From contig CAZUFC010000106.1 of assembly GCA_964619725.1 (NCBI GenBank), forward strand, positions 1 through 27,784: a DNA stretch of 27,784 bases. The letters are read 5' to 3'. Source of the DNA: an uncultured bacterium (GTDB lineage Bacteria; CSSED10-310; CAZUFC01). How positions within the stretch are numbered: the first letter of the stretch is position 1; each line of letters begins with the position of its first letter. The notes under the pieces were generated by a model that saw only the letters and a program-made list of their open reading frames with translations, was not told where the DNA came from and made no database searches. This document shows positions 11,103-26,981 of the stretch, one piece after another. A program made the translations under genes and the position numbers.

Positions 11103-11517
11103 TCCCCTCCTCCTTTGAATCGTTTGTATGATTTTGAATTATTCCTTTGATCTTACGCGTTCATCAAAAAAACTGCCCGCGAGGTTAACCATTATTCCTT
11201 CTGCAAAAGCCTCCTTTCGAAAAAAAAAATGATCTTCAGCGAATACTCCCTCTTTTACCCCTTCAAAAATTTCTTCTTAACTCCATAATAATACATTTTT
11301 GTTTCTTTTCTCAATAGTGTAACTAAGAATTTCCTGAAAAAAAATGCAGCTCGACAGATTCACAGCGCTTTTTTTGCGCCTTCGCATGATAAAGGTCATT
11401 GTTGATGCAAAAGTTTAACGCTCTGCCGAAGGAAATATATTTTTCCAGATTATGAACCAGTCGAGCCCTTTCTTTGCATCAATTAAATCGGATAAAGCAT
11501 CAACGGAGAGGCTGACT

Positions 11518-14500
11518 TCATGCTTTATTACTGACTTTGAAGATTTCTTTGATAAGAACCAGTGAAAGTATTGCAAGAAGAATAGCGAGACCTGAAGAAC
11601 CTGTTGCAGGAATGACCGGCGGTGATGTGGGCGTAGGAGAAACGCAATTATCCAGGTAGAGCCATAAGTCCCAATATCCGCACTCTTCATAGGAGTCGAC
11701 GACGGCGTAGTAGTATCCCGGCGTAAGTCCGGGGACGGTGAGAGTTTCACCCAGTCCCGGTCCGTTCGCATCAGCATAGGCGATGCAGTTTTCCGGTTCC
11801 GGACCGTCCAGAAGGAGCAGTATGGGGTCGTATAAACCGGGGTCGACGTTAGTCATGCTGATGGTGACGTCGCAATGTTCCCAGAGTAAAAACATGGTAG
11901 CCATATCGTCTCCTGCCAGTCCAGAGACGCCGCATGCGTAGTCTTCAAAGTCGTTGCTTTCGCCGCAGTTCGTCTGTGGTATAGGCGTTCCGGTAGGGAT
12001 GGAAGTCTGTGTAGGCGTAAATGTGTATGTGGGCGTTATTGTGGGAGTATTCGTAGGCCCTGTGGGAGTAAAAGTAGGCGTGCGAGTGGGAGTACGCGTA
12101 TGGTATGTCGGCGATAAAGTTGGCGTGTTGGTGGGTCCTGTTGGTGTTTTCGTCGGGGACCTGGTGGGAGTGCGGGTCGGGGCGGTCGGGGAGAATGTAG
12201 GAGTTCTGGTCGGTGTTCCTGTAGGACCTGTGGGCGTTTTCGTGGACGAAAAGGTAGGCGTAAGCGTGGGCCCTGTGGCGGTTGCCGTGGGTGAAACTGT
12301 GGGAGTATACGTGGGTCCTGTAGGAGTGTCAGTCGGAACAGCGGTCGGGGTCCTGGTGACGGTCGGCGAAAAAGTTCTTGTCGGAGACTGTGTTGGCGTC
12401 CTGGTGCCGCAATCGTCGAATTGAATGAACAAATCCCAGTATCCGCATTCTTCGTAGGAATCCACGACGGCGTAATAGTAGCCGGGTTCGAGAGAAATAA
12501 CGGTAATGCTTTCTCCCTGTCCGGCTCCGTTATCGTCAGCGTAGGTGAAGCAGTGTTGGGGTCCCGGTCCGTCCCATAACAGCAATATGGGATCGTATTC
12601 TGCCGGAGTCACGTTATCGATGGAAACAGTAACGTCGCAGAATTCATAAACCATGAAAAAAGTTGATATGTCGTCTCCGGCCAGTCCGCTGATTCCGCAT
12701 CCGTAGTTTTCCCAATCATTGCTGAAACCGCAATTGGATTGAGGAATAGGCGTTTCGGTAGGCGCGGGCGACGGTGTAGGCGATATGGTGGGAGTAGGAG
12801 AAATCGTCACAGTAGGAGACAATGTGGGGGTAGAGGAAAGAGTGGGCGTCAGGGTAACGGTAGAAGTGGGGGAGAGAGTAGGAGTAGGAGAAACGGTGGG
12901 AGTCAATGTAACGGTAGGGGTGGAGGAAAGAGTCGGCGTTGCGGAAAGCGTCGGCGATGGTGAGAGGGTAGGCGTGCCTGTATAAGTGGGAGTATATGTG
13001 GGTGTCCAGGTTGGAGTAAAAGTCGGAGTGCTGGTGACTGTCGGCGTATTGGTGACTGTGGGCGACAACGTTACGGTGGGGGTCAGCGTTGAAGTTCGCG
13101 TCGGCGCGGGGGTGAATGTCGACGTCTGGGTCGGGCTCAATGTCGGCGTTCGCGTGGGCGGCGGCGTGGGAGAATTGGTCGGCGTAAAAGTCCTGGTCGG
13201 CGAATTGGTTGCTGTCGGAGTTCTGGTCGGAAGAGGAGAAGGCGTATCGGTGTAGCATGGATCGATGACGAACTCAGCGCCGTCGACCTGTCCCGTCAAA
13301 TCGCCGCTCAGGGACCTGAATCCGACGAACCCCTCTGCAAACTCCACTGCCGTATCACCCAGGATCGCATTCGCTTTTACCTGCATCAAGACCGCGTAAA
13401 CCTGGTTGTCCCCGTCGCTGACAGTCCAACCGGGGTTGGGCGGGTTAGCGGACTTGGCATAATGATACCCGTCAGGATGGTCCGGCCATTCGCTGCCCAG
13501 GGATTCATCCTCCATATCCGTATCCGGCACGTAATCCGTCATTAATACGGGATCGCTGAAAACCAGCGGATCATAAATGAAAGCTGCATCTATCCCGTCC
13601 AGCGTCGCTTCGCTGATGTTCGGATCAAAAACTATCGTCAATTCAAAAACCGTGTCTCTGCATAAATTGCCGGACGCAGGCTCGAAAAACACATGCCCCG
13701 AAGCTAAAGGCGTTTCCGTTGGAGTAGCCGTGTAAGCTGTTGGAGTTAAAGTGGGTACAGCCTGTATGGTAAATTCTGCGTTTTCTATGCTGCTGAGGAT
13801 GTCGCCTTTTGAAGTGGAAAAACCGATGAATCCGTCTACGAAATCCAGGGTCGTTACGCCCGGAGGAGCATCGTCGCGAATCGGAAAAGTCAAGGAGTAT
13901 ACGTTGTTGTCTCCGTCTGAGGTCGTCCAGCCGTTCAGTCCTGAGGATTTGACGCGGGCATAATGATAGGCGTCAGGGTCTGTGGGCCAGGCATTTCCCT
14001 GCGATACGTCCAGCAAATCCGTTTCGGGAATGAAATCCTGGACGAGTTCAGGATCGTCGAATACGGCGGAATCGAAATGAAGAGCGGCGTCAACTCCCAC
14101 GATCTCAACTTCCGTTGCGTTGGGATCGAATATAATCGTCACAGTAACATTATCACCCTGCTGATAAGTTCCGGATGCAGGACTGATGATTACTGAAGCC
14201 GGTCCCGGAGTGGGAGCGGGCGAGGGGGTCGAAGTGGGCGGCAGAATGATGTCGAATGAAGCATCATCAACCGTACCGGTAACGTCTCCCGAAGCATCCT
14301 GAAAACTGATGAACCCTTCAACGAAGGAGATCGTCGTATTTCCTAGAGTAGCATCATCTCTTACCGTAAATTGCAATCGATACACATCGTTGTCTCCGGC
14401 AGCCGCAGGCCATCCGGACTTGGGGGGATTGGCCGTTTTCGAATAGTGATGACCATCCGGGAATCCCGGCCAGGCATTTCCCAGCGACACATCATCCATG

Positions 14501-14811
14501 TCTGCAACCGGAATGAAATCATTATCCATTACCGGGTCTTCAAAAACCGACCCGTCGAACTGAACGCAGGCGTCTAAAGCCGTAATAGTCGTTCCTTCCG
14601 AAGAATTATACTTTACGGTGACTGTAAAAGCTTCTCCCCTTGCCAGGTCCCCTGAAGCGGGATACAGCTCAACGTCCGCTGAAACTCCCATTGGAAAAAC
14701 GATCAACAGGAGCAGTAACCAGTTTACCGCCGGCAATCGTGTCACCGATATCTTTTCCGGAATGAGGGCTCGATCCGTTCCCGGAGGGAGCTTAAACCCT
14801 GTATTTTTCAT
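11518..14811 (-). CDS. Scaffoldin-like surface protein: 3 cohesin-like domains, 2 Cys-rich PPC-like domains, long Pro/Thr linkers, IPTL-CTERM-like anchor
   Basis: 1097 aa with a GGAGG RBS (14821-14825), starting 18 bp after the upstream stop. Signal peptide ends VSA. Three ~145-aa homologous beta-domains (14676-14245, 14199-13762, 13698-13261) show a cohesin-type pattern (G..[FV]TVT...D A.[VLF].[FY]D..VF ... Y.L.F.[VI][RK].DA..G.T.[IL].F). Two ~115-aa repeats lie at 12750-12406 and 11985-11641. C-terminus is IPATGSSG + hydrophobic helix + Lys residues. Confidence 0.8.
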
Positions 14812-14829
14812 TTTCGCTCGCCTCCCTGC

Positions 14830-17800
14830 TTAATTAGCGGATTCAATTGAACCGGATTTCGTCTCAAAAATATCGCCTTTCAAACTAACTGTCGTTTCGA
14901 CATCAACAACCGACTCTTCTTCGTCAGAGGATTCAAAAGCGGCTCCGACAAAACCTTCCCTGAACCAGATCAGCGAGTCCATGGAGGGAACAGAATCGGA
15001 ATGCAGCGTTGCTTTAATGGGAAACCTTAAACGATATAATGCATTTCTGCCTTCTTTCAATTCGACGCCTGTTTGTCCCGGCATTTTACCGCGACAATAA
15101 TGAAAAGTGTCGGCAAGTTCAGGAGCTTCAACACCCAGCGAGAAATCGGTCATGCCGCTGTTGAGGAAATCCGCTGTGATAACGGGTTTGTCCAGATATA
15201 CAGAATTGTAGGCCAGCGCGGCATCGATGGCCTCCAGAATTTCCCGTGCTTTTCCTGTCAAAAAGACTTCAACCTCAGCATAGGATTCATTATCTTCGCC
15301 TACTTTCACCATTCTGTAACCGAAACGAGCCGCCGGGTCATCATTCCTGGGCTGGTTCCCTGATCGAGCCGCATCAGGCACATAGGAAATCCGGCCGTTC
15401 TGATTCAACCATTCCGAATAATCGGCTGAATTTACAGCTTCATCAGCGTTGAAGTCCGCTCTTTCATCCCAGTTTCCTGAACCGGGAACGCTGCCGTTTG
15501 CCGCGAGCCAGATAACGAAATCTCCGGATGCGTTGACGTAAGCATCGCCGTTCGCATTGCCGCCCCTCGCAGAAATCGTATCATCCGGTTCCTCTCCCAA
15601 CGGTTCTATTCCATAACAGGAGACGAAATTCGGATCATCCGGTTCGGACAGATTTATGATCGTCGTTGAAGAATAAGCGACGGTCAAGGGCGTATCAGTA
15701 ATTACGGACAGGTGATTCATATGACTTACCGCCAGATAAAGATCACCGCCGGGACAACCAGGCAGTTCAATATCGCCCGTTCCTCCATACTCGTCCAAAG
15801 CGACCTCTTCGTATGAAGCCAGAACCGTTGTCGCAGTATCCGGCGTGCTTCCGTACCGAAGCTCCAGGTCGATGTCCGTAGTTTCCTGAACGCCGCTGCC
15901 GTAATAACCGTCCAGATAAAGCGTCAAATTTATCATCGGCGCTCCGGCGAATTCGTCCGCTCCCATATCGTAGTCGGTATCCTGAGGCCTTGAATTGCCG
16001 TCGTAATCTTCCAGCAACGTATCCGGCTCCGCTGCATTCAAAGCCGTGCCTATACAAGGCGATGTTTCCATTAAATGAAAATCGCCCTGACCCACGAATT
16101 CCGGATCAGCGGAAATGTTCCCTTCACCCGCATCGCCGTCCTCGATGTTCGAATATGTCGCTGTCACACCGCTTAAATCATCTCCGTTGTTCCAGAGGAT
16201 GCAGTTGAGTATTTCCAGCGTGCCTGAATCCTTATAAATGCCGTAACTGCCGTTATTGGCCAAAGTATTGTTGACGAATTGGACTTCAAGACCGCCTGTC
16301 GCCCAGTATATGCCCTGACCTGAGTTGTTGGTAATAAAGTTGTTGGTTATTATGATCGTATCGTCCGAACTGCTGTATATTGCATCACCGCCCGACCAGG
16401 TATTAGGACTTGCCGTCGCATTGTTGCCGTCTATCCGCAATCTGTCCAGCGTCAACGAAGAAACGTCGTCGTCAATGAAGATGCCGCCGCCATAAGCCCG
16501 GGCATCCTGACTCGAATTGCCGGCGGCATTAGCCGTCGCCGTATTACTCTGGATCAGAGTGTTCTCATGTATTGTCGTATTTGTCTGGTCATTGATGTAA
16601 ATTGCTCCGCCGTAAGAACGGCCGTAACCGCGGCCGTGATACGCCGTATCCCTGCCGTAAGAATAAGCCGTATTGTTCTCTATCGTGCAATGACTGATCG
16701 TGGTTGTCCCTTCCTGTGAGCCGCAGTACAAGGCGCCTCCATACGAATAACCGTACCCGCGATCGTCTGAGCTGCCGTTCTGCCCTCTGGCGTAAGACCA
16801 GTTTTCCGTGAAATGGTTGTATGTGATGGTCGGACCGCTCGTCGTATCCGTGAAAACAGCGCCGCCGTATCCGTAAGCCTGCACATATCCATTGTAAGAT
16901 TGAGAACAATAAACCCTGGCCTGGTTGGCTTCAAAGATATTGCCGGTTACGTACGATTGACCCTGTAAATACAGAGCGCCGCCGGCGCCGCTGGAACCTC
17001 TGCCCGTCGTATATGCCCAGTTTTCCGTAAACATATTGTCTATGATCTGAGGTGAAGCATGCTGATTACAGAAAATTGCGCCGCCTGCAGCAGCTCCTCC
17101 CGTCCAGGCGTTGGTTGCCAGATTTGAGTCAAACGTGCAACCCGAGATGACTGTCGTTTCGTCTAAATTGAAGCAGCTTATCGCCCCGGCGGCATACGAT
17201 GATGAGTTTCCATGGAAGATAGAATCTTCTACGGTAACGACAGCGCTTGATTCCAGATGCATGCCGGCTCCGTACCCCGTAGATGAGCCTACGACCGTGT
17301 TGTCCAGGAACAGGCTGTTGATGACCCAGACGTCAAAGCAGTTGCCGAAATAAACGCCGGCTCCTCGGGGGTATTCGCCTGTGCTTCCCGTTGTGTTGCT
17401 GTCGAAAACGCAGTTCTTGACGGCTATATGTTCGCCGAATTCGCAGTAAATGCCGGCGCCGGCATTCTGCTCGCCATGCTTTATGGTGAATCCGTCAATC
17501 GTTATATTCGATGCCCCGTTTATCATAATGACTGAATTGCGATGACCGCCGTCTATTATCGTAACGTTGGCATCGAAATTCCTTCCGCCGCCGCCGACCG
17601 GATAACCGCCCATCAGCGTAACATCGTCGTAAAGCTCAAAGTTCTCATGATAAACCGCCTTTGCCACATGCACTGCCGTGTTGCCGGAAGCCGATACCAG
17701 GGCTGCGCTGATGCTCTTTTTAGCCGTCGTCCAAGTGAGTCCGTCATTAGAATCGTCGCCGTTGACCTTATCGACGTAATAATGATCAGCAGGAGTCGGA

Positions 17801-20800
17801 GAATATGTGCCGACGGGCGTCGGCGTGGCAGGCGTGATGCTGGGACCGGGCGTCGGATTGACGCTCTGGGTTTCATCAGCTCCGATATCGACGACTAAAT
17901 CGTTGTAAGGCCTGGCTTCGCCGTCGAAATCGATGTCCGGCGCCAGAGTGTTCAATCCCCGGTCGATACAGCAGGAATTCGGCCTTATGTGATAGTCGCC
18001 TTCGCCGATGAACAGAGGATTACAGGGCGGGTCAAGGTTTCCTTCACCGGCATCGCCGGCCTGTACATTGCTGTAAGAAGCAGTCACCGCTTCCAGATCG
18101 TCATAGTTGCCCCATAATATGCAATTGCGAATTATCGGAGCAGCGCCTTCCGTGCCTTGTATGCCGTAACCATCATTATAGGCTATGGTGTCGTTGATGA
18201 TTTCCGGGGCCCCTCCATAAAGATATATGCCGGTTGAAGGATGCTCCACAACGAACGAATTGTATACTTTAGCCGGAGACTCCTGAACGTATATGCCGTA
18301 ACCAGCGGATACGTTGTTGGGCGAAGCGCTGAGGTTGTTGTTGCGCACTAGAACGCCGTTCAATTCAACATCGCCGGCCGGACCGTAAATGTGAATACCG
18401 CCGCCTCGCGCATATGAGGCTTCTCCTGAATTACCTGCGCCTGCAGCCTGAGCCAGGCAGTTCTCTATGATCATACCGCCTCCGAATGTCGCGACGGCTT
18501 CGTCATCGCACTTGATTCCCCCGCCGTATGCATATCCGTACCCTCGCCCATGGTAAGCCGTATCCGAACCGTAACCGTATGCCGTGCTGTTTTTGATGGT
18601 ATCTCCCATCATTACTACGGCGCTTCCGGCTGCACAGTATATGCATCCGCCGTGCCCGTAGGCATAAGCCCGTTGATCAGAGCTGCCGTTTGCAGCGCGG
18701 CTGTATGCGGTGTTTCCGTCGAAAATGTTCCCTTCTGATTCAGCGGCGCATCCTTCGCTGAAATAGATGCCGCCGCCGAAAGCATACTCGTAAAGGTAAG
18801 CGCCGTAACCGCCGCTGTAATAATTGTAAGCCCAGTTGTCTGTAATCTCGTTGCCGACAAGAGTCAGCTCTCCTTCGCAGAATATCGCTCCGCCCATAAC
18901 CGTTTTGCCCGAATATCCCTCAATGCGCGCCTGGTTGCTTTTAATCTCATTGTTCTCCAGGAAAGCCCGTCCTTCCGGCGCTATATATAATGCTCCTCCT
19001 CTGCTCGCGCTCCCGATGCTCCGGTTATTCTCAATCAAGTTTCCTTTTATGCTTGCTGCCGATTCCGAACAGGCTATGCCCAATCCGCCGCCGGCATAAC
19101 CCGACGTGTTATAGCTGATGGTATTGCCCGTTATCGACAAATCATAACCCGAACTGCAATAAACGCCTCCTCCATAAGCTCCTCCGCCGTAAGCGACGTT
19201 GAAGGAAATTTCATTGTTTGCTACGTCCAGATTTACTCCTTCAAGATAGATGCCCGCGCCCAGGGCGAGGTTCTTCGAACCAGGGTCCCCGTAACATGCG
19301 TTGGTTGTTATAATGTTGCCGGATATTTTAACGTCTGAAGAACGGCTGACATGAATGCCGCCGCTGTATTCGCCTTCGCCGTTCGTGATCATGAATCCGT
19401 CTATTTCCACGTTCGTCATGCCGGCTATGGTTATAACGACATCCTGCAAACCGCCGTCGATGACTGTTAAATAAGCGTCGGGGTCTCTTGAACCGCCGCC
19501 GGCAGGGTATCCCCCTAAAAGCGAAAGATCGTCGGAGCCTATCAGGTTCTCATAATAAACGTCAGAAGCCACATGCACATTTCCTCCGCCATAGGTCGAA
19601 GCCAGTTCAATGGCGGCTGATATGCTCGCCTTGGCCGTTTCCCAGGTCAAACCGTCGTTCGCATCATTCCCGTAAACGCCGTCAACGTAAAAATCCATGG
19701 CAGGAGTAGGACTCGGACCAGGCGTAGCCGTCCCTGCAGGCGTCACGTAAGCCGTCGGAGTCGCATTGACTCCCTGAACCTCATCCGCTCCAATATCCGG
19801 GATGCCGGCATTGTAAGGCCTTGAGTCGCCGTCCAGATCATGGTCTCTTATGCCATCGTAACTGCCCCTGTCCACACAGCAGGAATAACCGGAAATATGA
19901 TAATCTCCGCCGCCAAGAAACAACGGATCGCATGGAGGATTCAAGTTCCCCTCGCCCGAATCGCCGCCCTGAATATTGCTGTATGTCGCGCTTACCGCTT
20001 CCAGATCATCCGTATTAGCCCACAAGATGCAATTACGTATGATCGGCGCGCTGCCTCCGACGCCCTGGATGCCGTAACCATCGTTGTATACTATCGTATC
20101 GTTGATGATGATCGGATCACATTCGTTCAGATATATACCCGTACCGGGATGCTCGGCCGTTATCGAATTGTATAAGTGCACCTGCGCGGCGTTGATGTAT
20201 ATCCCATACCCGTAAAGCTGACTTGCCGGCGAAGCGCTTATTGAATTGCCCCGCACGATTATTCCATCCAGGTCTATCTCTGCGCCCGCTCCGCTTATAT
20301 AAATGCCGCCGCCCCTTGCATAGGAGCCGCGTGAACTGTTCCCCGCGCTCGAACACTGACAGATGTTCTCTTCAATCGCGGTTTTGCCGTTAATGAATAC
20401 GGAGGAGAGATCGCAGCAGTAAACGCCGCCGCCGTACGCGTAAGCATAACCGCGGCCGTGATAGGCCGTATCCTGACCGTAAGCATACGCCGTGTTGCCT
20501 GAAATCGTTCCTGCCGTGACAGTCACAGCGCTCCCGCCTTCACAGAACAGGCCGCCCCCGTAACCGTAACCGTATCCGCGTTCATCCGAACTGCCGTTGC
20601 GGGCATCACCCTTAGCCAAATTGGACTGGAAAACGTCATCGACTGAATTTACGGTGCAGCCGTCGACCGCGTACAATCCTCCGCCGTAAGCATATTCGTA
20701 TAGATATGCGCCGTATCCTCCGCTGTAATAACTGTAACATACATTTTCGGAAATGACGTTTTCGTTCGACGTCAACGAACCTTCGCAGTAAATCCCACCG

Positions 20801-23493
20801 CCCCTTACAGTTTTATTCGCCGAGTTGATGCTTTGAGCGGTATTGCTCGTGACGCTATTCTGAACCATGTAGGCTGAACCGGCGGCAGCGATGAATACGC
20901 CGCCTCCGCGAGCGACTGTCGAATAAGTCAGATTCCATGCTATCGTGTTGTCGTGCAAAGTGATCTCATAATCTGTCGCGCCGACGGCAACGCCGCCGCC
21001 CGCATAATCCGAGCTGTTATGATTGATGCTGTTGCCGCTTACATACATGTTGCGGCCGGACCCGCAATATATGCCGCCGCCGTAGGACGAACTGCCGGTG
21101 ACCGTATTGTATTCTATCTCATTGCCGTTGATGAAAATGTCCATCCCTTCGGCATAAATGCCGCCGCCTAAGGCCAGATTAGGCAAAGAGGGACTCCCTT
21201 CAGCCGTATTGGCGGTTATCCGGTTATCAGAAATAGTCACATTGTTCCCGCGGCTTATATGAATGCCGCCCCCGTAATCGCCCCGGCCGTTTCTGATTAC
21301 GAAACCGTCTACCGTTACATTGGATACTCCGCTGATCCTTACGCACGGATTCCGCGCCATACCGTCTATTGTCGTCAAATAAACTTCAGGGTCCCTGACA
21401 CCTCCGCCATGCGCATATCCGCCGTAAAGCCTGACATTATCCAACGGAACTATGTTTTCCTCATACGTCCAGGTCGCTACATGAATGTTTCCGCCTCCGG
21501 CAGCCGATGCCGCTTCAACAGCTACCCTGATCGTCGCCATCCCAGTCCCCCAGCTCAGACCGTCGTTTTCGTCATTGCCCGTCTGTCCGTCCACATAATA
21601 ATCGTTCGCCGGCGTCGGAACAGGCGTTACGCTTCCCCCCGGCGTCGCATATACCGTCGGCGTCGGATTCTCCGATTCCGTCTCATCCGCTCCTATGTCA
21701 GGAATGCCGTAATTCCACGGCCTGGCCTGACCGTCTACGTCATGGTCCGGGATACCGTCAAAACTGCCCCGGTCAACGCAACAGGAATTTGAATGTATGT
21801 GATAATCGCCCATTCCTTTGAAAAGAGGATCACAAGGCGGATTCAAATTGCCCTCGCCCTCATCGCCGTTCTGAACGTTGCTGTACGTCGCCGTACACTC
21901 ATACAGATCGTCGCCGTTGCCCCATAATATGCAGTTCCGTACCGTCGGAGCCCCGCCGGTCCTGTATATGCCCCGGTTCTCATTATAAGCTATCGTGTTG
22001 TTGATCATCTGAGAACTCGTATCTTGTAAAAATATTCCGTCGCCGTAATTCTCGGCTACTATGCAATTGTACGCGTTTATCGTTGAATCGTTGATGTAAA
22101 GACCGGCGCCGTAAGTCCCGGTATTGGGCGATGAAATGGCTGAGTTGCCCTTAATTTCCAATCCGTCCAGCTCCGTTACGGTTCCGGTTCCCCATATCGC
22201 CAGGCCGCCGCCGCCCGTATATGCATAATCATAGCTGCCGTCGCCTACTCCGTAAGCCTGAGCCAAGTTATCATATATTTTCACTTCAAAGCCTATCGTT
22301 ACGTCAGCGCCCGTCGAAACGGCCACAGCCCCTCCATAACCATTTCCGTACCCTCGTCCATGATATGCCGTATCACGACCATAACCGTATGCCAGATTCC
22401 TCTCAAACAAGTCTCCCGTCAATTCCACTACGCTTCCGCCCGAACAGTACAACGCTCCTCCGTATCCGTACGCATAGCCCCTGCGATCGGAACTCGTATT
22501 ACGACTGTCCGCTTTCGCCGTATTTTCTGTGAACGAATTATTCGATAAAGTCAGAACACAGCCGTCATCAGCAAAGACACAGCCGCCGTAAGCATACTTC
22601 TGCTTGCTCCCGCCATAACCCCCGCTGTGATAAGAATATGCGAGATTCCCCGTAAAAACGTTTTCCGTTAATATCAGTTCCCCGGCGCTGTAAACGGCCC
22701 CGCCGTAAGCTACGCTCCCGTGCGATCCCGTCGAATAAGCCATGTTCCCGCTTACAGCGCTTCCGCTTATCTCAACTATGCTCGTCCCGTCTATGTTCAA
22801 AGCGCCGCCGTACGCCGATGAAGCCGTGCTCTCATTGTTGTCTATTAAACAATCCGTTATCTCCACTTCAGAATCATCAATCTTTATGCCGGCGCCTCCC
22901 GATGACCCGGAACACGTGTTTCCCTGAATCACGCAACCGCTGAACACCACACTCGAACTTACACAACAGGCTCCGCCTCCGGATGTCGTCGCAGCATTCT
23001 GCGTTATCAGACAATCCGATATCGTCACCGACTCGCTTAAATTACACGTCAACCCCGCGCCGCTTGCAGCAGCCCCGTTGCGTATCGTGAATCCGTCTAT
23101 GCCCGCTCCCGTCAAAGCGTCTATCGTTACCGATGTTCCCGATGCCGATCCGTCAATGACCGTCGTGTATATCGACGGGGCCCGCTCTCCCCCTCCAGAA
23201 GGATATCCGCCTAAAACCGACATGCCATCCCACGCAAGACTTACCTGCTCGTAATAATATCCCTGCGCTGCATGTACCGTGCACCCGGCGCTTCCCGCAT
23301 CTATACCCGCCTGGATCGTCGCCTTCGCCGTTCCCCAGCTTAATCCGTCGTTTAAATCGTCGCCGAACTCCTGGTCTACATAATAATCCGTCTGTCCTTG
23401 CACCGCTCCCGTCATGACCGCTATGCTCAAGATTACTATTATCGCTGCCGATATTCCTTTGACTGCTCTTGATTTACAACTGCTCCCCTTCAT
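14830..23493 (-). CDS. Giant secreted protein: 4 right-handed parallel beta-helix modules + HxNHL module + dockerin-like domain + C-terminal cohesin-like domain
   Basis: 2887 aa with an AAGGAGG RBS (23501-23507) and a signal peptide. Four ~570-610-aa modules (23388-21682, 21603-19780, 19695-17872, 17787-15952) each begin [YF]YVD...G.D.NDGL.W.T (DUF1565-like), contain GG[GA]I[YF]/I..N coils and end in D.DG..RP...D[IM]GADE (choice-of-anchor-Q-like). Paired Ca-loop motifs lie at 15561-15394 and a cohesin-like tail at ~15324-14900. Confidence 0.85.
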   Translation of the reverse strand: MKGSSCKSRAVKGISAAIIVILSIAVMTGAVQGQTDYYVDQEFGDDLNDGLSWGTAKATIQAGIDAGSAGCTVHAAQGYYYEQVSLAWDGMSVLGGYPSGGGERAPSIYTTVIDGSASGTSVTIDALTGAGIDGFTIRNGAAASGAGLTCNLSESVTISDCLITQNAATTSGGGACCVSSSVVFSGCVIQGNTCSGSSGGAGIKIDDSEVEITDCLIDNNESTASSAYGGALNIDGTSIVEISGSAVSGNMAYSTGSHGSVAYGGAVYSAGELILTENVFTGNLAYSYHSGGYGGSKQKYAYGGCVFADDGCVLTLSNNSFTENTAKADSRNTSSDRRGYAYGYGGALYCSGGSVVELTGDLFERNLAYGYGRDTAYHGRGYGNGYGGAVAVSTGADVTIGFEVKIYDNLAQAYGVGDGSYDYAYTGGGGLAIWGTGTVTELDGLEIKGNSAISSPNTGTYGAGLYINDSTINAYNCIVAENYGDGIFLQDTSSQMINNTIAYNENRGIYRTGGAPTVRNCILWGNGDDLYECTATYSNVQNGDEGEGNLNPPCDPLFKGMGDYHIHSNSCCVDRGSFDGIPDHDVDGQARPWNYGIPDIGADETESENPTPTVYATPGGSVTPVPTPANDYYVDGQTGNDENDGLSWGTGMATIRVAVEAASAAGGGNIHVATWTYEENIVPLDNVRLYGGYAHGGGVRDPEVYLTTIDGMARNPCVRISGVSNVTVDGFVIRNGRGDYGGGIHISRGNNVTISDNRITANTAEGSPSLPNLALGGGIYAEGMDIFINGNEIEYNTVTGSSSYGGGIYCGSGRNMYVSGNSINHNSSDYAGGGVAVGATDYEITLHDNTIAWNLTYSTVARGGGVFIAAAGSAYMVQNSVTSNTAQSINSANKTVRGGGIYCEGSLTSNENVISENVCYSYYSGGYGAYLYEYAYGGGLYAVDGCTVNSVDDVFQSNLAKGDARNGSSDERGYGYGYGGGLFCEGGSAVTVTAGTISGNTAYAYGQDTAYHGRGYAYAYGGGVYCCDLSSVFINGKTAIEENICQCSSAGNSSRGSYARGGGIYISGAGAEIDLDGIIVRGNSISASPASQLYGYGIYINAAQVHLYNSITAEHPGTGIYLNECDPIIINDTIVYNDGYGIQGVGGSAPIIRNCILWANTDDLEAVSATYSNIQGGDSGEGNLNPPCDPLFLGGGDYHISGYSCCVDRGSYDGIRDHDLDGDSRPYNAGIPDIGADEVQGVNATPTAYVTPAGTATPGPSPTPAMDFYVDGVYGNDANDGLTWETAKASISAAIELASTYGGGNVHVASDVYYENLIGSDDLSLLGGYPAGGGSRDPDAYLTVIDGGLQDVVITIAGMTNVEIDGFMITNGEGEYSGGIHVSRSSDVKISGNIITTNACYGDPGSKNLALGAGIYLEGVNLDVANNEISFNVAYGGGAYGGGVYCSSGYDLSITGNTISYNTSGYAGGGLGIACSESAASIKGNLIENNRSIGSASRGGALYIAPEGRAFLENNEIKSNQARIEGYSGKTVMGGAIFCEGELTLVGNEITDNWAYNYYSGGYGAYLYEYAFGGGIYFSEGCAAESEGNIFDGNTAYSRAANGSSDQRAYAYGHGGCIYCAAGSAVVMMGDTIKNSTAYGYGSDTAYHGRGYGYAYGGGIKCDDEAVATFGGGMIIENCLAQAAGAGNSGEASYARGGGIHIYGPAGDVELNGVLVRNNNLSASPNNVSAGYGIYVQESPAKVYNSFVVEHPSTGIYLYGGAPEIINDTIAYNDGYGIQGTEGAAPIIRNCILWGNYDDLEAVTASYSNVQAGDAGEGNLDPPCNPLFIGEGDYHIRPNSCCIDRGLNTLAPDIDFDGEARPYNDLVVDIGADETQSVNPTPGPSITPATPTPVGTYSPTPADHYYVDKVNGDDSNDGLTWTTAKKSISAALVSASGNTAVHVAKAVYHENFELYDDVTLMGGYPVGGGGRNFDANVTIIDGGHRNSVIMINGASNITIDGFTIKHGEQNAGAGIYCEFGEHIAVKNCVFDSNTTGSTGEYPRGAGVYFGNCFDVWVINSLFLDNTVVGSSTGYGAGMHLESSAVVTVEDSIFHGNSSSYAAGAISCFNLDETTVISGCTFDSNLATNAWTGGAAAGGAIFCNQHASPQIIDNMFTENWAYTTGRGSSGAGGALYLQGQSYVTGNIFEANQARVYCSQSYNGYVQAYGYGGAVFTDTTSGPTITYNHFTENWSYARGQNGSSDDRGYGYSYGGALYCGSQEGTTTISHCTIENNTAYSYGRDTAYHGRGYGRSYGGAIYINDQTNTTIHENTLIQSNTATANAAGNSSQDARAYGGGIFIDDDVSSLTLDRLRIDGNNATASPNTWSGGDAIYSSSDDTIIITNNFITNNSGQGIYWATGGLEVQFVNNTLANNGSYGIYKDSGTLEILNCILWNNGDDLSGVTATYSNIEDGDAGEGNISADPEFVGQGDFHLMETSPCIGTALNAAEPDTLLEDYDGNSRPQDTDYDMGADEFAGAPMINLTLYLDGYYGSGVQETTDIDLELRYGSTPDTATTVLASYEEVALDEYGGTGDIELPGCPGGDLYLAVSHMNHLSVITDTPLTVAYSSTTIINLSEPDDPNFVSCYGIEPLGEEPDDTISARGGNANGDAYVNASGDFVIWLAANGSVPGSGNWDERADFNADEAVNSADYSEWLNQNGRISYVPDAARSGNQPRNDDPAARFGYRMVKVGEDNESYAEVEVFLTGKAREILEAIDAALAYNSVYLDKPVITADFLNSGMTDFSLGVEAPELADTFHYCRGKMPGQTGVELKEGRNALYRLRFPIKATLHSDSVPSMDSLIWFREGFVGAAFESSDEEESVVDVETTVSLKGDIFETKSGSIESAN
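15394..15561 (-). other. Dockerin-like duplicated Ca2+-binding loop-helix domain
   Basis: GNANGDAYVNASGDFVIW ... ADFNADEAVNSADYSEW: two segments matching the dockerin loop pattern [GA][DN]xNxDxxVNxxD followed by an amphipathic helix. The first loop has a one-residue insertion. Confidence 0.7.
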
Positions 23494-23729
23494 AAAGACT
23501 CCTCCTTGACTGAATTTTTTCCCGAAATCAAATAAATATTTTCTGTTTTTTTAAAATCCATTTATGTAAAAATTTTTTGCGCGCTGCATTAAACTTTTAA
23601 AAAATTATGCATATTTCTGTGAAATTCAACTTGAAAAATTTATAAATCATACATCTGACTTTTTTAGCGCAAGGCATTGCAATTAATTGCCGATTCTTTC
23701 GTAGTTCCGGTTTCCGGAAAATCACCAGC

Positions 23730-23892
23730 ATGACGAAGAGTCTCTGCTTTGAGAACATTGATGAAGTTTTACCGTCTGAACATCATCAGACTGCGAGGAT
23801 TCAGCCGTCGTCAGGCGGAGAGCCTGGAATTTGACGCTGAGAACACGAGGTTTCAAGGAAAACTCCTTCGCTGCTGACGAAAGTTCCGTCAT
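23730..23892 (-). ncRNA. Candidate structured leader RNA / sRNA upstream of the giant beta-helix gene
   Basis: GC-richer island in an AT-rich intergenic region with five nested or adjacent stems found by eye (23885-23892/23730-23737; 23857-23866/23763-23773; 23833-23840/23801-23809; 23822-23826/23812-23816; 23786-23791/23774-23779). It lies just downstream of a near-consensus promoter and matches no riboswitch consensus I recognise. Confidence 0.45.
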
Positions 23893-23916
23893 TTAGGTAC
23901 GCTTAGGACGTATCTG

Positions 23917-23944
23917 ATTATATTGATAAAAAATTGAAAGTCAA
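23917..23944 (-). promoter_or_regulatory. Near-consensus sigma70 promoter
   Basis: Minus strand reads TTGACT-N16-TATAAT. Predicted start is ~23910, about 415 nt upstream of the ATG at 23493. Confidence 0.65.
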
Positions 23945-23995
23945 AAGAGAGGCGGAAAATTTTTTTCGCTGAAATGTATAGGAGAAGGTCGCCGA

Positions 23996-24643
23996 TTAAT
24001 CAATGCGAAATGGAAGGGCAAACCTTAACAGGAAGAAGAAAAGCATTAAAAGGAGGAAGCCTCCTGCCGGTGAAAAAGCGGGAACGGGAGCGGCAGTGGG
24101 GACAGGCGTAGGCGTTTGGGTTTGTACCGGCGTAGGAGAATTCAATGAGGCGACGTTATAATTTCCCTCGGTGATCTGCGTAGGATCGAGAATTTCTCCG
24201 TATTGATCGCTGAAGGTAATAAAATTTTGAGTAAAAGTAATGGCGGTTTGTCCCATAACAGGATTAGATTTCACCGGAAAAGTAATAGAGTAGACATAAT
24301 AATCCGTTTCATCGAAGACTGTCCATCCGGTATCGCTTGGCATAGCTATGCGTTCGTAATGAAAACTGTCGGGGTGTCCCGTCCAACTGTTTCCCATAGA
24401 GAAATCCGACATTTCCTCTTCGGTAATGAAATGTTGCGTAACCGAAGGCTCGTCGAAAACCTGCGGATCAAAATCAAGGCAGGCATCCAAACCAGTAACC
24501 GTGGTATTCGTACCGGGAGAAAAAACTATAGTGATTTCGAGCTCTTCACCCGGATGAATAACGGCTTCAGGGGGCATAATCATGACAGCCCCCGTTTCGA
24601 TCATCGTAGATAATATAAAGAACCATAAAATTGCCACGATCAA
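23996..24643 (-). CDS. Single cohesin-like domain protein with Pro/Thr linker and IPTL-CTERM-like anchor
   Basis: ~215 aa. The GGAGGA RBS at 24645-24650 is better spaced for GTG at 24637 than for TTG at 24643. Hydrophobic N-terminus, one domain clearly homologous to the three repeats of 11518-14811 (GLDACLDFDPQVFDEP...DFSMGNSW..HPDSFHY...GW...VYSITFPVK...GQTAITF), and a C-terminus VPAFSPAGG + hydrophobic helix + Arg residues. Confidence 0.8.
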   Translation of the reverse strand: MIVAILWFFILSTMIETGAVMIMPPEAVIHPGEELEITIVFSPGTNTTVTGLDACLDFDPQVFDEPSVTQHFITEEEMSDFSMGNSWTGHPDSFHYERIAMPSDTGWTVFDETDYYVYSITFPVKSNPVMGQTAITFTQNFITFSDQYGEILDPTQITEGNYNVASLNSPTPVQTQTPTPVPTAAPVPAFSPAGGFLLLMLFFFLLRFALPFRID

Positions 24644-24842
24644 ATCCTCCGATTAATGTTTTCCGAGATGCGATCACTCCTCAATCGTTCTCCATTTAAT
24701 GATACTGATACGCGGGTATAAATCAATATTATCTGATTTTTTTCCTCGTTGTTTCGTAATTTTGCTTTACTTTTAATCTTTTGTATTATTGAATCAAATT
24801 TGAGACCGGCCTTGCGGCCATAGTTTTGTATTGAGGGCAGAA

Positions 24843-26981
24843 ATGATGTCGAACACAAAGATCATAAAACCCGGAAAAAATTGCCTGAGTTATGAGCCGG
24901 CGACGCGGATAAAATTTTTGATCGATGCGGCGTCTTATTACAGAACTTTTTATGAAGCGGTCAGCAGGGCCGAGCGGTCGGTATTGATCGTGGGCTGGGA
25001 CATTCACAGCAGACTGGAACTGTTGAGGGATGATGAGCGCCATAAATTTCCCGTGGTTTTGGGTGATTTCCTCAATGCCGTAGTTGAAGAGCGGCCAGAC
25101 CTTCAGATACACATTTTAAACTGGGATTTTTCTGTTTTATATATAATGGAAAGAGAGTCATTTCCCACGTATCGACTGGAATGGAAATCGCACGAGCGCA
25201 TACATTTCAGAATGGACGGCCAACTTCCTTTCGGGGCATCTCATCATCAGAAGATAGTCGTAGTGGACGATAAGGTAGCTTTTACGGGAGGACTTGATCT
25301 TGCGATTCATCGATGGGACACCAGCGCCCACCGTCCGGAAGATGAAAGGAGGAAAGACCCTAAAGGCGAACATTTTACTCCCTATCATGATGTGCAGATG
25401 ATGGTTGAAGGACCGGCGGCCAAAGCTTTGGGCGACTTGATACGCTCCAGGTGGAAACGTTCGGCAGGAAAAAAGATACCTGAGCCGGAAACCGACCCGG
25501 AAATTACTCCATGGCCAGAAAACATGTCCCCTGATATTCAGAACCACCATGTCGCCATATCACGAAGTTACGCGGAATGGAGAGACTATCCCGCGGTTCA
25601 CGAAGTAAAACGATTGCATCTCGATGCTCTCGCTGCTGCAGAAAAGTTGGTTTACATCGAAAATCAATATCTTACTTCAGCCTCCATCAGCGACGCCCTG
25701 GCCGAATCCTTAAGCCGGAAGGAGGGTCCGCAAATCATCATGGTGCTTCCGAAGCAGAGTTCGGGTTGGATGGAGCAAAGCACCATGGACGTTCTTCGTT
25801 CAAGATTGTTGACGAAACTGAGGAATTCCGACGCATTCAGCAGACTTCACGTCTATTATCCCGCGGTGCTCAACGATCAGGAGATAAAAGTCCATGTACA
25901 TGCCAAGGTCATGATCGTGGATGATATATTCGTCAAAGTCGGGTCGTCGAATCTGAGCAACCGATCCATGGGGCTGGATTCCGAATGCGATCTGGCAATG
26001 GAATTCCCCAACCTGAACAACCAGGAAAAAAACGGAAGCGCTCCTGTCGCCGAATTCAGAAATAAACTTATGGCCCATCACCTGGGTATGTCCGTCGCTG
26101 AATTCAAAGAAGCCGCCGACAAGGAGGAATCACTCATTGAAGTAATCCGAAACAATAAAAATAAGCATAAGTTGCTGCCGCTGGACGGAAAAGTCGAAAA
26201 ATGGAGGGATGATCTGGTGCCGGTATCAGCGGTTATAGACTCAGAAAATCCCATTCAACCCGATCAACTTTTGAAGCGTTTTTTCAACGATTTCAGCGCC
26301 GACATATCCAGAAAAAAACCTATTCTTCGCATTATTATTATGGCTTCATTTTTAATATTCCTCTCCGCTGTATGGAGATGGACCCCGCTGTATGAGCTGA
26401 TCACTATAGACCGGCTTTCCGAATGGGCCGATTCCGTTCAGGGCAATAACGTCAATCTTCTTATCGCTCTTGCCGTCCTGACAGTAGGGAGCATCCTTAT
26501 GCTTCCCTTCACTATGCTTGCAGTGGGAGTAACCCTTATCTTCGGACCGGTTTCCGGTTTTCTCTGCGCTATGCTCGGCTCTTTCCTGTCATGCTCCGCC
26601 ACATTCTTCATCGGTCGTTATATATTAAGCAAGGACATTGAACATCTTCTGGGAAAAAGCTATCAAAAACTGAAACCTCATCTGCAAAATAAAGGCATCT
26701 GGGCAGTGATGCTGTTCCGCAACGTCCCCATAGCGCCGTTTACCGTTTTCAATCTGGCAGCCGGTTCTCTCAATATCCCATACAGCGCATTCATCCTGGG
26801 TTCTCTCATAGGCCTGACCCCCGGAATTTTCGTCCTCTCATTCTACACCGACCAGGTCATTCAGACTCTGAAAAATCCCAACCTGACGAAAATAAGCATA
26901 ACCGTAACAGTCCTGATCGTGCTGGTAATAGCAGGTTTCTTCAGCCGCAAATTCCTGCGCAGTAAAAAAATGAAGGATTAA
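24843..26981 (+). CDS. Phospholipase D-family protein fused to a C-terminal VTT/SNARE-associated (DedA/TVP38) membrane domain
   Basis: Two HKD motifs (HHQKIVVVDDKVAFTGGLD; HVHAKVMIVDDIFVKVGSSNL) plus YHDVQ and YIENQY motifs. The C-terminal multi-TM domain has FFIGR and FRNVPIAPFTVFNLAAG. ATG at 24843/24846 follows GAGGG. Confidence 0.92.
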   Translation: MMSNTKIIKPGKNCLSYEPATRIKFLIDAASYYRTFYEAVSRAERSVLIVGWDIHSRLELLRDDERHKFPVVLGDFLNAVVEERPDLQIHILNWDFSVLYIMERESFPTYRLEWKSHERIHFRMDGQLPFGASHHQKIVVVDDKVAFTGGLDLAIHRWDTSAHRPEDERRKDPKGEHFTPYHDVQMMVEGPAAKALGDLIRSRWKRSAGKKIPEPETDPEITPWPENMSPDIQNHHVAISRSYAEWRDYPAVHEVKRLHLDALAAAEKLVYIENQYLTSASISDALAESLSRKEGPQIIMVLPKQSSGWMEQSTMDVLRSRLLTKLRNSDAFSRLHVYYPAVLNDQEIKVHVHAKVMIVDDIFVKVGSSNLSNRSMGLDSECDLAMEFPNLNNQEKNGSAPVAEFRNKLMAHHLGMSVAEFKEAADKEESLIEVIRNNKNKHKLLPLDGKVEKWRDDLVPVSAVIDSENPIQPDQLLKRFFNDFSADISRKKPILRIIIMASFLIFLSAVWRWTPLYELITIDRLSEWADSVQGNNVNLLIALAVLTVGSILMLPFTMLAVGVTLIFGPVSGFLCAMLGSFLSCSATFFIGRYILSKDIEHLLGKSYQKLKPHLQNKGIWAVMLFRNVPIAPFTVFNLAAGSLNIPYSAFILGSLIGLTPGIFVLSFYTDQVIQTLKNPNLTKISITVTVLIVLVIAGFFSRKFLRSKKMKD

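Follow-up and report, generated by a model that had tools for sequence, protein, structure and literature searches.

A probable non-cellulosomal cohesin-dockerin display cassette for a giant beta-helix protein in an uncultured diderm bacterium

Introduction

Cohesin and dockerin modules also occur outside of cellulosomes, in all domains of life, where their function is described as unknown (Peer et al., 2009, as cited in PMC5244752). Anaerobic methanotrophic (ANME) archaea and their sulfate-reducing bacterial (SRB) partners carry and express many cohesin/dockerin proteins, which were proposed to be adhesins (PMC5244752; PMC10553843); for ANME-1 data sets, Table 2 of PMC5244752 counts 80 and 77 cohesin domains next to 149 and 112 dockerin domains. 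It has further been reported that the neighbouring giant-protein pair Cag_2037 (cohesin) and Cag_2038 (dockerin) of the Chlorochromatium epibiont was proposed to bridge cells (bioRxiv 10.64898/2026.03.19.712371), that dockerin-type giant proteins were described in Omnitrophota (bioRxiv 10.1101/2023.11.21.568195), that the Ruminococcus bromii amylosome is a non-cellulose cohesin-dockerin enzyme complex (PMC4611034) and that the largest cellulosome system comprises 78 cohesins (PMC5590126). In this study, a cluster of three genes encoding proteins with such modules (P0001, P0002 and P0003) was analysed, which lies in a stretch of 27,784 nt (the window; contig CAZUFC010000106.1 of assembly GCA_964619725.1) from an uncultured bacterium of the GTDB lineage CSSED10-310; CAZUFC01.

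The three genes probably form a non-cellulosomal cohesin-dockerin display cassette for a giant, adhesin-like beta-helix protein. The putative cargo, P0002, ends in a dockerin that is followed by a cohesin (the Doc-Coh dyad), and P0001 and P0003 are cohesin-bearing proteins with a C-terminal signal that appears to be of the exosortase type. Cohesin-dockerin pairing outside of cellulosomes is already a known kind of system. With the ANME/SRB proteins the locus shares a non-cellulolytic host, high module counts, the adjacency of cohesins and dockerins and a proposed role in adhesion; however, those reports provide domain counts and expression, without a cassette architecture, a dyad rule, two module types or an exosortase-type anchor. 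The Chlorochromatium pair is similar with regard to its neighbouring giant surface-protein genes, its diderm non-cellulolytic host and the predicted cohesin-dockerin contact. There, in contrast, the cohesin is located on a repeats-in-toxin/type I secretion (RTX/T1SS) cargo and the dockerin on a filament of immunoglobulin (Ig) repeats, and the system consists of a single pair without multivalent scaffold, dyad or exosortase-type tail. The amylosome likewise extends the cohesin-dockerin principle beyond cellulose, but its cargoes are GH13 amylases in a Gram-positive host and it represents an enzyme complex, not a display of adhesins. Literature joining cohesin, dockerin and PEP-CTERM was not found; PMC5244752 holds cohesin/dockerin and "exosortase" as topics apart.

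Results and Discussion

Architecture of the Three Genes and Identity of the Cohesins

All three genes, and all features of them described below, are located on the minus strand: P0003 at 23996..24643 (215 aa; open reading frame (ORF), translation and Pfam), P0002 at 14830..23493 (2887 aa, 300.5 kDa) and P0001 at 11518..14811 (1097 aa), with a gap of ~500 nt between P0003 and P0002 and of 18 nt between P0002 and P0001. P0001 has the layout of a trivalent scaffoldin-like anchor, in which a signal peptide and three cohesins are followed by Pro/Thr linkers, two Cys-rich modules and, at the C-terminus, a sorting signal. P0003 is a single-cohesin version of it, in which the cohesin lies between an N-terminal hydrophobic segment and a Pro/Thr linker that leads to the C-terminal sorting signal; its start codon is uncertain, being TTG in the present call, with a database copy of 202 aa. 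In P0002, a Sec-type signal peptide precedes the four beta-helix modules, behind which come an Ig-like module, the dockerin and the terminal cohesin, and no anchor was found in it by Pfam and NCBIfam scans. An earlier note, made from the letters of the window alone, had described three adjacent co-oriented genes with five copies of a ~145-aa domain, the 18-bp gap, a dockerin-like pair of Ca loops at 15394-15561 and a ~300-kDa cargo of four beta-helix modules without recognisable glycoside hydrolase (GH) or family 3 carbohydrate-binding module (CBM3), all of which agrees with the ORFs, alignments, reciprocal hidden Markov models (HMMs), profiles and Pfam scans reported here.

Three of the five domain copies are found in P0001 (cohesin 1, 14236..14676; cohesin 2, 13762..14199; cohesin 3, 13252..13701), one in P0003 (24146..24592) and one, a diverged copy of a cargo-terminal type, at the C-terminus of P0002 (14833..15336). 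They align over ~145 residues with 14 invariant columns and 28-44% identity to the first copy, cohesin 3 having the highest value (44%). P0001 (40.7 bits) and P0003 (29.9 bits) match the Pfam family Cohesin (PF00963) over its gathering cut-off of 24.1. When the copies were scanned alone, cohesin 2 gave 26.4 bits, while cohesin 3 and the copy of P0002 did not yield any Pfam match. Both are tied to the other cohesins by HMMs with E-values of 1e-13 to 1e-71, and an HMM built from the genome's cohesins of this type (group A, see below) covers cohesin 3 and the cohesin of P0003 as well. Moreover, an HMM of the four scaffoldin/anchor copies only recovers the copy of P0002 at E 3.5e-16, and in the opposite direction all scaffoldin copies are recovered at E 1e-13 to 1e-15. 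As these reciprocal HMMs exclude the respective target copy, the kinship of the P0002 copy is not circular.

The earlier note had taken the repeats for cohesins and had set a fold check beforehand, in which cohesins indeed came first. An AlphaFold model of cohesin 1 from a 25-row alignment reached a predicted local distance difference test (pLDDT) score of 98.1. A Foldseek search of this model against the PDB returned cohesins in all of the ~45 listed rows (best E 1.8e-9; template modelling (TM) scores 0.70-0.73). The Foldseek-independent program VIA-align, applied to 48,161 chains, also gave cohesins for all of its top 19 matches (Z 14.9-11.1, root-mean-square deviation 2.4-3.8, 123-137 aligned residues), followed by a CLIPPER domain (Z 10.8) and then by Gram-positive pilins; the amylosome cohesins 7uvg and 7urp are among the structural matches. 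The model of the P0002 tail (330 aa, 8 sequences) is poorer, with a mean pLDDT of 49.6, values of 60-90 for its cohesin part and of ~30 for the dockerin. Nevertheless, the first structural matches of this cohesin part are cohesins, too (E 7.6e-4). A profile of the five-copy alignment searched against PDB sequences found nothing significant, its best match (E 0.072) being a cohesin. Judged from the Pfam matches and the predicted models, the repeats are true cohesins with the nine-stranded beta-sandwich (jelly-roll) fold. A generic Ig or CBM fold of the repeats, which the earlier note had named as the outcome that would refute it, is ruled out by the Pfam and fold searches.

The Dockerin of P0002

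The dockerin (aa 2633-2709; 15364..15594 with the core at 15394-15561) and the terminal cohesin (aa 2720-2887) of P0002 are located on one chain. The dockerin is made up of two Ca-loop-plus-helix segments, in keeping with the dockerin pattern of a duplicated stretch of ~22 residues with an EF-hand-like loop (D/N at positions 1, 3, 5, 9 and 12) ahead of a helix. Its second Ca loop, DFNADEAVNSAD, is canonical (DxNxDxxxNxxD), both loops are followed by a D[FY]xxWLxxNG segment, and two helices are predicted at the right places, with low confidence. The two halves are alike at 9/22 positions, among them the complete D[FY]xxWLxxNG pattern of the helix, a similarity that would allow a dual binding mode. 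The module is near-invariant in all 8 paralogues of the genome (the group-A dockerins), the tails of which are otherwise 41-50% identical. In the genome scan these eight gave 14.2-17.9 bits with Dockerin_1. A profile of the 8 paralogues only leads to the solved dockerin 2y3n_B at E 6.8e-5 as the sole match below 0.1; with 11 dockerins of other phyla added, the E-value is 3.3e-14 and the leading matches are dockerins. The sequence is 30-37% identical to dockerins of metagenome-assembled genomes (MAGs) labelled Chloroflexota/Anaerolineae, Armatimonadota, Omnitrophota, Bathyarchaeia, Auribacterota and Pirellulales, plus one labelled "uncultured bacterium", and 16 of the 18 members of the dockerin alignment match Dockerin_1. 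According to these profiles, the loop pair is a genuine, if divergent, dockerin. It is preceded by a conserved beta-strand (Ig-like) module (15598..15822), which is kept in 8/8 paralogues and has no Pfam family; its strands are predicted with low confidence. This module is a possible analogue of an X-module.

The Beta-Helix Cargo Modules

The bulk of P0002 is formed by four right-handed beta-helix modules of ~600 aa, which are 36-53% identical to each other and each end in a choice-of-anchor Q domain: module 1 (aa 35-607; 21673..23391), module 2 (aa 632-1247; 19753..21600), module 3 (aa 1274-1877; 17863..19674) and module 4 (aa 1903-2545; 15859..17787). They are supported by Pfam (Beta_helix, 203 bits for the protein, and for module 1 also NosD), by NCBIfam, which places choice_anch_Q in 4 stretches, and by comparison of the modules with each other. 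GG[AG][ILVMF] motifs occur 30 times in P0002 and 3.2 +/- 1.6 times in shuffled sequences. The nearest ESM Atlas clusters of module 2 carry the names DUF1565, Chlam_PMP or Beta_helix, which serves as a lead only. No glycoside hydrolase and no CBM3 was found in the three proteins of the window by Pfam, no catalytic family was found in P0002 by Pfam and NCBIfam, and no autotransporter beta-barrel is listed for P0002 by Pfam.

The C-Terminal Sorting Signal and the Stalk

P0001 and P0003 both end in a tripartite tail consisting of a [IV]P[AS]xxxxG motif, a hydrophobic helix and Lys/Arg residues. In P0001 (11521..11631) the motif region reads VIPATGSSG and the tail is Lys-rich, in P0003 (23999..24103) it reads VPAFSPAGG and the tail is basic. 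Usually behind a Pro/Thr stretch, such a tail is present on 204 of the 3,676 ORFs of at least 300 aa in the genome (about 5%), and controls with internal windows and with reversed tails gave 10 and 16 hits, respectively, each over all 29,275 ORFs. The genome contains one exosortase/archaeosortase-family gene, a small one on contig C134, that matches PF09721 with 35.5 bits and TIGR04178 with 65.7 bits (cut-off 23). It is below the cut-offs of the named subtypes, the nearest being archaeosortase B (78.2/150) and XrtH (76.6/86). The P0003 tail gave only three chance-level rows with NCBIfam (E 0.15-0.73). As Omp85 has 6 matches in the genome (90.9% complete) and sortase (PF04203) has none, the cell is considered to be diderm. 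Anchoring by a sortase of the LPXTG kind through the IPATG of the P0001 tail was rejected because the genome lacks a sortase match; IPATG is read instead as part of an exosortase-type motif. Motif and gene content together thus point to an exosortase-type signal in a diderm cell, and the tail may represent an undescribed variety of sorting signal.

Between the cohesins and the tail of P0001 lie two Cys-rich modules, the first (117 aa, PPC/FDP-like; 12397..12747) matching NCBIfam FDP_fam with 25.3 bits, below the cut-off of 29, and the second (11632..11982), which is 65% identical to the first, matching Pfam PPC with 17.4 bits, below the cut-off of 25.9. Between 1 and 8 copies of the module are present in each of nine further large ORFs, eight of which have the C-terminal tail, and the module therefore looks like a stalk element. 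The same tail also terminates several other open frames of 4,000-8,500 aa, and a 12,092-aa open frame (G000:C34:1691-37966, plus strand) ends in a dockerin and a cohesin of the second type described below (group B) and the sorting tail.

Paralogous Cassettes in the Genome and Relatives Outside of It

The genome (9.17 Mb, 344 contigs, contamination 6.5%) was scanned with HMMs on 29,275 stop-to-stop ORFs. Pfam yields 31 Cohesin matches (30 over the cut-off) and 28 Dockerin_1 matches at E <= 1 (11 over the cut-off), and our own HMMs find 72 cohesins and 33 dockerins, which fall into two types with separate sequences. Group A, to which P0001-P0003 belong, comprises 16 cohesins in 13 ORFs and 8 dockerins of the form seen in P0002, all of them (8/8) followed by a cohesin in the same ORF. 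Group B comprises 56 cohesins in 34 ORFs and 25 Cys-rich dockerins (two on duplicate contigs), for 20 of which the dyad is found in the same ORF, with one more being broken. Immediately downstream of the dyad genes, 11 group-B loci have a gene for a protein with one to five cohesins of the same type, a Pro/Thr linker and the tail, and 4 of the 8 group-A loci (C106, C19, C215, C93) have an anchored cohesin gene of the same type, which in C215 and C93 is cut by the contig end. No dockerin gene adjoining a cohesin gene of the other type was seen among the cassettes of the genome. The P0001-P0003 cluster is one of about 20 paralogous cassettes. Four dyad proteins (C7, C34, C182 and C19_38745) also bear the sorting tail themselves.

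A Pfam census of 20 other dockerin-bearing ORFs revealed 11 with Beta_helix/NosD and 3 PKD/NHL/MAM giants; the remaining ones carry CARDB/CarboxypepD_reg, Laminin_G, CBM_4_9 (one) or PLDc_2/TIG, or cohesin/dockerin modules only. At E <= 1e-4 none of these 20 ORFs contains a glycoside hydrolase catalytic domain, free cellulases not having been searched genome-wide. The combination of dockerin-bearing GHs and a CBM3-bearing scaffoldin by which a cellulosome is recognised was thus found neither in these ORFs nor in the three proteins of the window. Two observations concern the assembly. One group-B dockerin-cohesin gene (G000:C12:40015-40775, minus strand) is split over three frames, a TAG lying within the Pfam match, and is likely a pseudogene or an assembly error. 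Furthermore, the cassettes on the two contigs of each of the pairs C276/C277 and C42/C81 are the same or almost so, and many contig ends lie in or directly behind scaffoldin genes. As the repeats probably fragment the assembly, all module counts are approximate.

Outside of this genome, the cohesin subtype is rare. A cohesin profile searched against 1.84 billion representative proteins gave 37 hits at E <= 1e-3, two of which are the window's own; 22 of the 37 were scanned, and 9 of them contain Cohesin at E <= 0.001, 8 over the cut-off. A word-based homologue search with P0003 gave 3 hits including the window's own protein. The 13 nearest genomes that were compared have only the phylum in common with the present one, and 3 of them match the tail profile, with the dockerin part only. 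A related-loci search with the tail alignment likewise found relatives at the dockerin level only. Related arrangements in other phyla are subtilases (Peptidase_S8) in two Anaerolineae-labelled MAGs (L015:7916-10666 and L018:262-2973), which end in a Dockerin_1-Cohesin dyad, two loci with Pfam Cohesin after the dockerin match (L008 and L011), a protein with Dockerin_1, Cohesin and a type IX secretion system (T9SS) tail (P0017), and, in an Omnitrophota MAG, a dockerin-ended protein with a cohesin protein of 223 aa encoded behind it that has a VIPEP-type tail. Going by these domain assignments, the Doc-Coh dyad is not unique to this genome, and in another phylum it is found on an enzyme cargo, the subtilases.

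Proposed Display of the Cargo and Alternative Explanations

If the three genes act as a display cassette, the dockerin of P0002 would plug with Ca2+ into the cohesins of P0001, so that up to three cargoes could be held per anchor, and perhaps also into the cohesin of P0003. Binding to P0001 or P0003 would tether the beta-helix protein to the envelope of the diderm cell, on its surface, and the terminal cohesin of P0002 would constitute a further socket, which could be a chain extender, an intramolecular clasp or a socket for another partner. As the cargo has no recognisable catalytic domain, its role is likely adhesion or the formation of a surface coat, not polymer breakdown. The earlier note had proposed a scaffoldin, a monovalent anchor and a docked cargo, with which the architectures fit, encoded by a three-gene unit, in place of which two transcripts are probable. 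The anchor that it had expected appears to be an exosortase-type signal in a diderm cell and not an S-layer homology (SLH) domain or a sortase signal. The idea of a stand-alone "-osome" did not hold, given the about 20 paralogous cassettes, and its model leaves the Doc-Coh dyad unexplained. The genome census of dockerin-bearing proteins for which it had called resulted in the 33 dockerins of two types, with no GH cargo among the 20 scanned.

Several points weigh against the display of P0002 by its neighbours. The binding of dockerin and cohesin is inferred from sequence. A complex prediction for a single pair, cohesin 1 of P0001 and the dockerin of P0002, gave without controls an ipSAE of 0.01 (mark 0.32), which speaks neither for nor against binding, and the dockerin was modelled at a pLDDT (~30) that makes it unusable, as is the Ig-like part. 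The first Ca loop, NANGDAYVNASGD, has a one-residue insertion. Dockerin_1 (PF00404), the sole Pfam family listed for the module, is reached with 15.6-16.0 bits, so that of the two Pfam families named for checking by the earlier note Cohesin is matched over its cut-off (P0001, P0003) and Dockerin_1 below it (16 vs 22.9 bits). Two group-A cargo genes (C203, C171) have no downstream cohesin gene, and at two further group-A loci the contig ends 119 nt past the cargo gene. As the cassettes arose by whole-cassette duplication, the co-location of the types amounts roughly to two independent observations. The curated sorting-signal (CTERM) models of NCBIfam do not match the tails of P0001 and P0003 at E <= 1. 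In addition, the display of P0002 leaves the outer-membrane passage of a 300-kDa protein unaccounted for, and a catalytic role of the beta-helix modules, which belong to the pectate-lyase fold class, is possible.

An alternative that takes the dyad as its starting point is a chain-forming polymer, in which the dockerin of one cargo enters the terminal cohesin of the next one and the scaffoldins only seed chains or networks, so that a fibre or coat would result and not a 3:1 complex. The dyad is the rule in this genome (8/8 group-A and 20/25 group-B dockerins) and recurs in other phyla (L015, L018, L008, L011, P0017), cohesins exceed dockerins (72 vs 33), and some dyad proteins are self-anchored, namely the four mentioned above (C7, C34, C182, C19_38745), all of which would suit such a polymer. 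However, in a quick maximum-likelihood tree, which separates the cohesins of groups A and B with full support (SH-aLRT 100), the eight group-A cargo-terminal cohesins form their own long-branched clade (SH-aLRT 100, branch length 1.4), and their identity to scaffoldin cohesins is only 22-30%. This divergence fits at least as well with the terminal cohesin having another specificity or function, and the chain-forming polymer is regarded as unlikely. Even more speculative is its far-reaching version, according to which the dyad is a self-propagating connector and the scaffoldins seed head-to-tail chains or branched networks of beta-helix and other adhesin-like proteins of 100-1,200 kDa, which would yield a modular, non-covalent coat with two orthogonal plug-and-socket codes and an undescribed exosortase-type signal. 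If true, this would be a new principle of envelope construction, also for the dyad proteins of Chloroflexota and other phyla.

Pectate lyases and many glycanases have a right-handed beta-helix fold, and the four modules of P0002 might be lyases or hydrolases of an unrecognised family that attack a non-cellulose polymer, for example a mat exopolysaccharide, in an analogue of the cellulosome or amylosome. The DNA is found in runs labelled microbial mat metagenome, an exopolysaccharide-rich setting, and a Pel9A-like name is found among the nearest ESM Atlas clusters, again as a lead only. This enzyme complex appears improbable, as no catalytic family was found in P0002 or in the 20 other dockerin-bearing proteins, as the GGA/FxxN-type motifs and the four-fold repetition of the module resemble adhesins of the Pmp type, and as the other cargoes carry PKD, NHL, FG-GAP, CARDB and Laminin_G, which are domains of the adhesion type.

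The short linker between dockerin and cohesin, with its fixed length in all paralogues, the conserved terminal position and the divergence of the cargo-terminal clade would also be compatible with an intramolecular clasp. In this case, the terminal cohesin would fold back on the dockerin of its own chain, with a role in stabilisation, as a cap that keeps secretion competence or as an export domain at the C-terminus. As the monomer model of the tail shows no confident packing of dockerin and cohesin (dockerin pLDDT ~30) and as a clasp leaves the adjoining multi-cohesin anchor gene of the same type unexplained, it is held to be very improbable. The least credible possibility is that the modules are homologous to cohesins and dockerins without pairing, the cohesins being inert Ig-like spacers and the dockerin a Ca-dependent stabiliser, for while the cohesins are arranged in tandem like stalk domains, about 15 loci have a dockerin gene directly next to a cohesin gene, with the types always matched, and the dockerin helix residues are near-invariant across paralogues that are otherwise 41-50% identical.

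Transcription Units and Neighbouring Genes

Between P0003 and P0002, a promoter-like site (TTGACT-16 nt-TATAAT; 23917..23944) with 11/12 consensus matches was found by a consensus scan only. The start codon of P0002, with AAGGAGG as its ribosome-binding site, follows ~420 nt further downstream. As ~500 bp with this near-consensus promoter separate P0003 from P0002, the unit is probably divided into two transcripts and not a single three-gene operon. The 18-nt gap, the promoter and the long leader suggest that P0002 and P0001 would be co-transcribed. The leader itself (23494-23944, minus strand) is AT-rich and could hold a regulatory element; an Rfam scan of the window found no family, and the leader is without match. 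Independently assembled contigs of public runs span 11400-24800 with zero differences, and one contig bridges the P0002/P0001 junction. The covering runs belong to one study, labelled microbial mat metagenome, and as the best run may be the source sample, this agreement is a check of the assembly and not independent support. No RNA run is listed among the public runs with this DNA, which carries no weight with regard to expression.

A tandem-repeat scan detected only one short array. A GC-skew spike (+0.375) at 12001-13000 lies over the region coding for the Pro/Thr linker of P0001 (minus strand); it reflects the base composition of the ACN and CCN codons there and does not mark replication. 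Three further genes of the window were inspected. The one at 368-6418 (minus strand) encodes a 2016-aa secreted protein with Peptidase_C25 (gingipain-type), fn3 and CARDB-like modules and weak matches to models of myxosortase-dependent M36 peptidases, and lacks dockerin, cohesin and C-terminal tail. At 9159-11102 (minus strand) a 647-aa secreted protein without Pfam family is encoded, which matches weakly (36.3 bits, cut-off 60) the N-terminal domain of Bdellovibrio mosaic adhesive trimer fibre proteins. Divergently from P0003, a gene at 24831-26981 (plus strand) encodes a 716-aa fusion of two phosphodiesterase motifs of the phospholipase D (PLD) type and a VTT (DedA/TVP38-like) membrane domain.

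Comparison with Known Systems

The cohesins of this locus have the same predicted fold as those of cellulosome scaffoldins (Z 11-15), such as C. thermocellum OlpA/SdbA/CipA and R. flavefaciens ScaE (3ul4, 4dh2, 2zf9). As in those, cohesins stand in tandem on Pro/Thr linkers, a monovalent anchor is combined with a multivalent scaffold, and the dockerin is located at the end of the cargo. Unlike in cellulosomes, there is no CBM3, no GH cargo and no SLH or sortase anchor, and the host is diderm. The gene layout differs as well, since each cargo gene here has its own adjacent anchor gene, whereas cellulosome producers have scattered enzymes and one scaffoldin cluster. Furthermore, the cohesins of this genome exceed its dockerins, and the cargo carries a cohesin after the dockerin. 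The usual layout of an adaptor scaffoldin is a series of cohesins followed by a C-terminal dockerin. P0002 likewise combines both modules on one chain, but in the order Doc-then-Coh and at the C-terminus of a large cargo.

With exosortase/PEP-CTERM systems the tails share the tripartite signal behind a Pro/Thr-rich region, the presence on ~200 proteins and the single exosortase-family gene. In contrast to these systems, the motif is [IV]P[AS]xxxxG and not PEP, no curated model applies and the enzyme is below the subtype cut-offs. The cargo modules resemble the chlamydial Pmp/DUF1565 proteins in their right-handed beta-helix and the enrichment of GGA[ILV]/FxxN-like motifs. Unlike Pmp proteins, P0002 has no autotransporter barrel, its modules are four in tandem and its attachment would be via the dockerin.

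With ~20 cargo-plus-anchor cassettes, two types in one cell, a recurrent dyad and no degradative enzymes on the cargoes, the genome represents a natural experiment. As the cargoes of these cassettes lack degradative enzymes, the system as a whole points to adhesion or the building of a coat. Specificity and chain formation are directly testable with small recombinant modules, and two orthogonal, compact, Ca-dependent connectors from a diderm would also be of use in building surface displays. A lead on the sorting of the surface proteome in such cells is provided by the exosortase-type tail, which about 5% of the large proteins carry. Compared with the systems described so far, what is new here is that the system reaches this scale in a non-cellulolytic diderm from a phylum with few sampled members, that one cargo gene is paired with one anchor gene, that a single genome has two separate module types, that the Doc-Coh dyad is the rule and that the anchor is apparently of the exosortase type.

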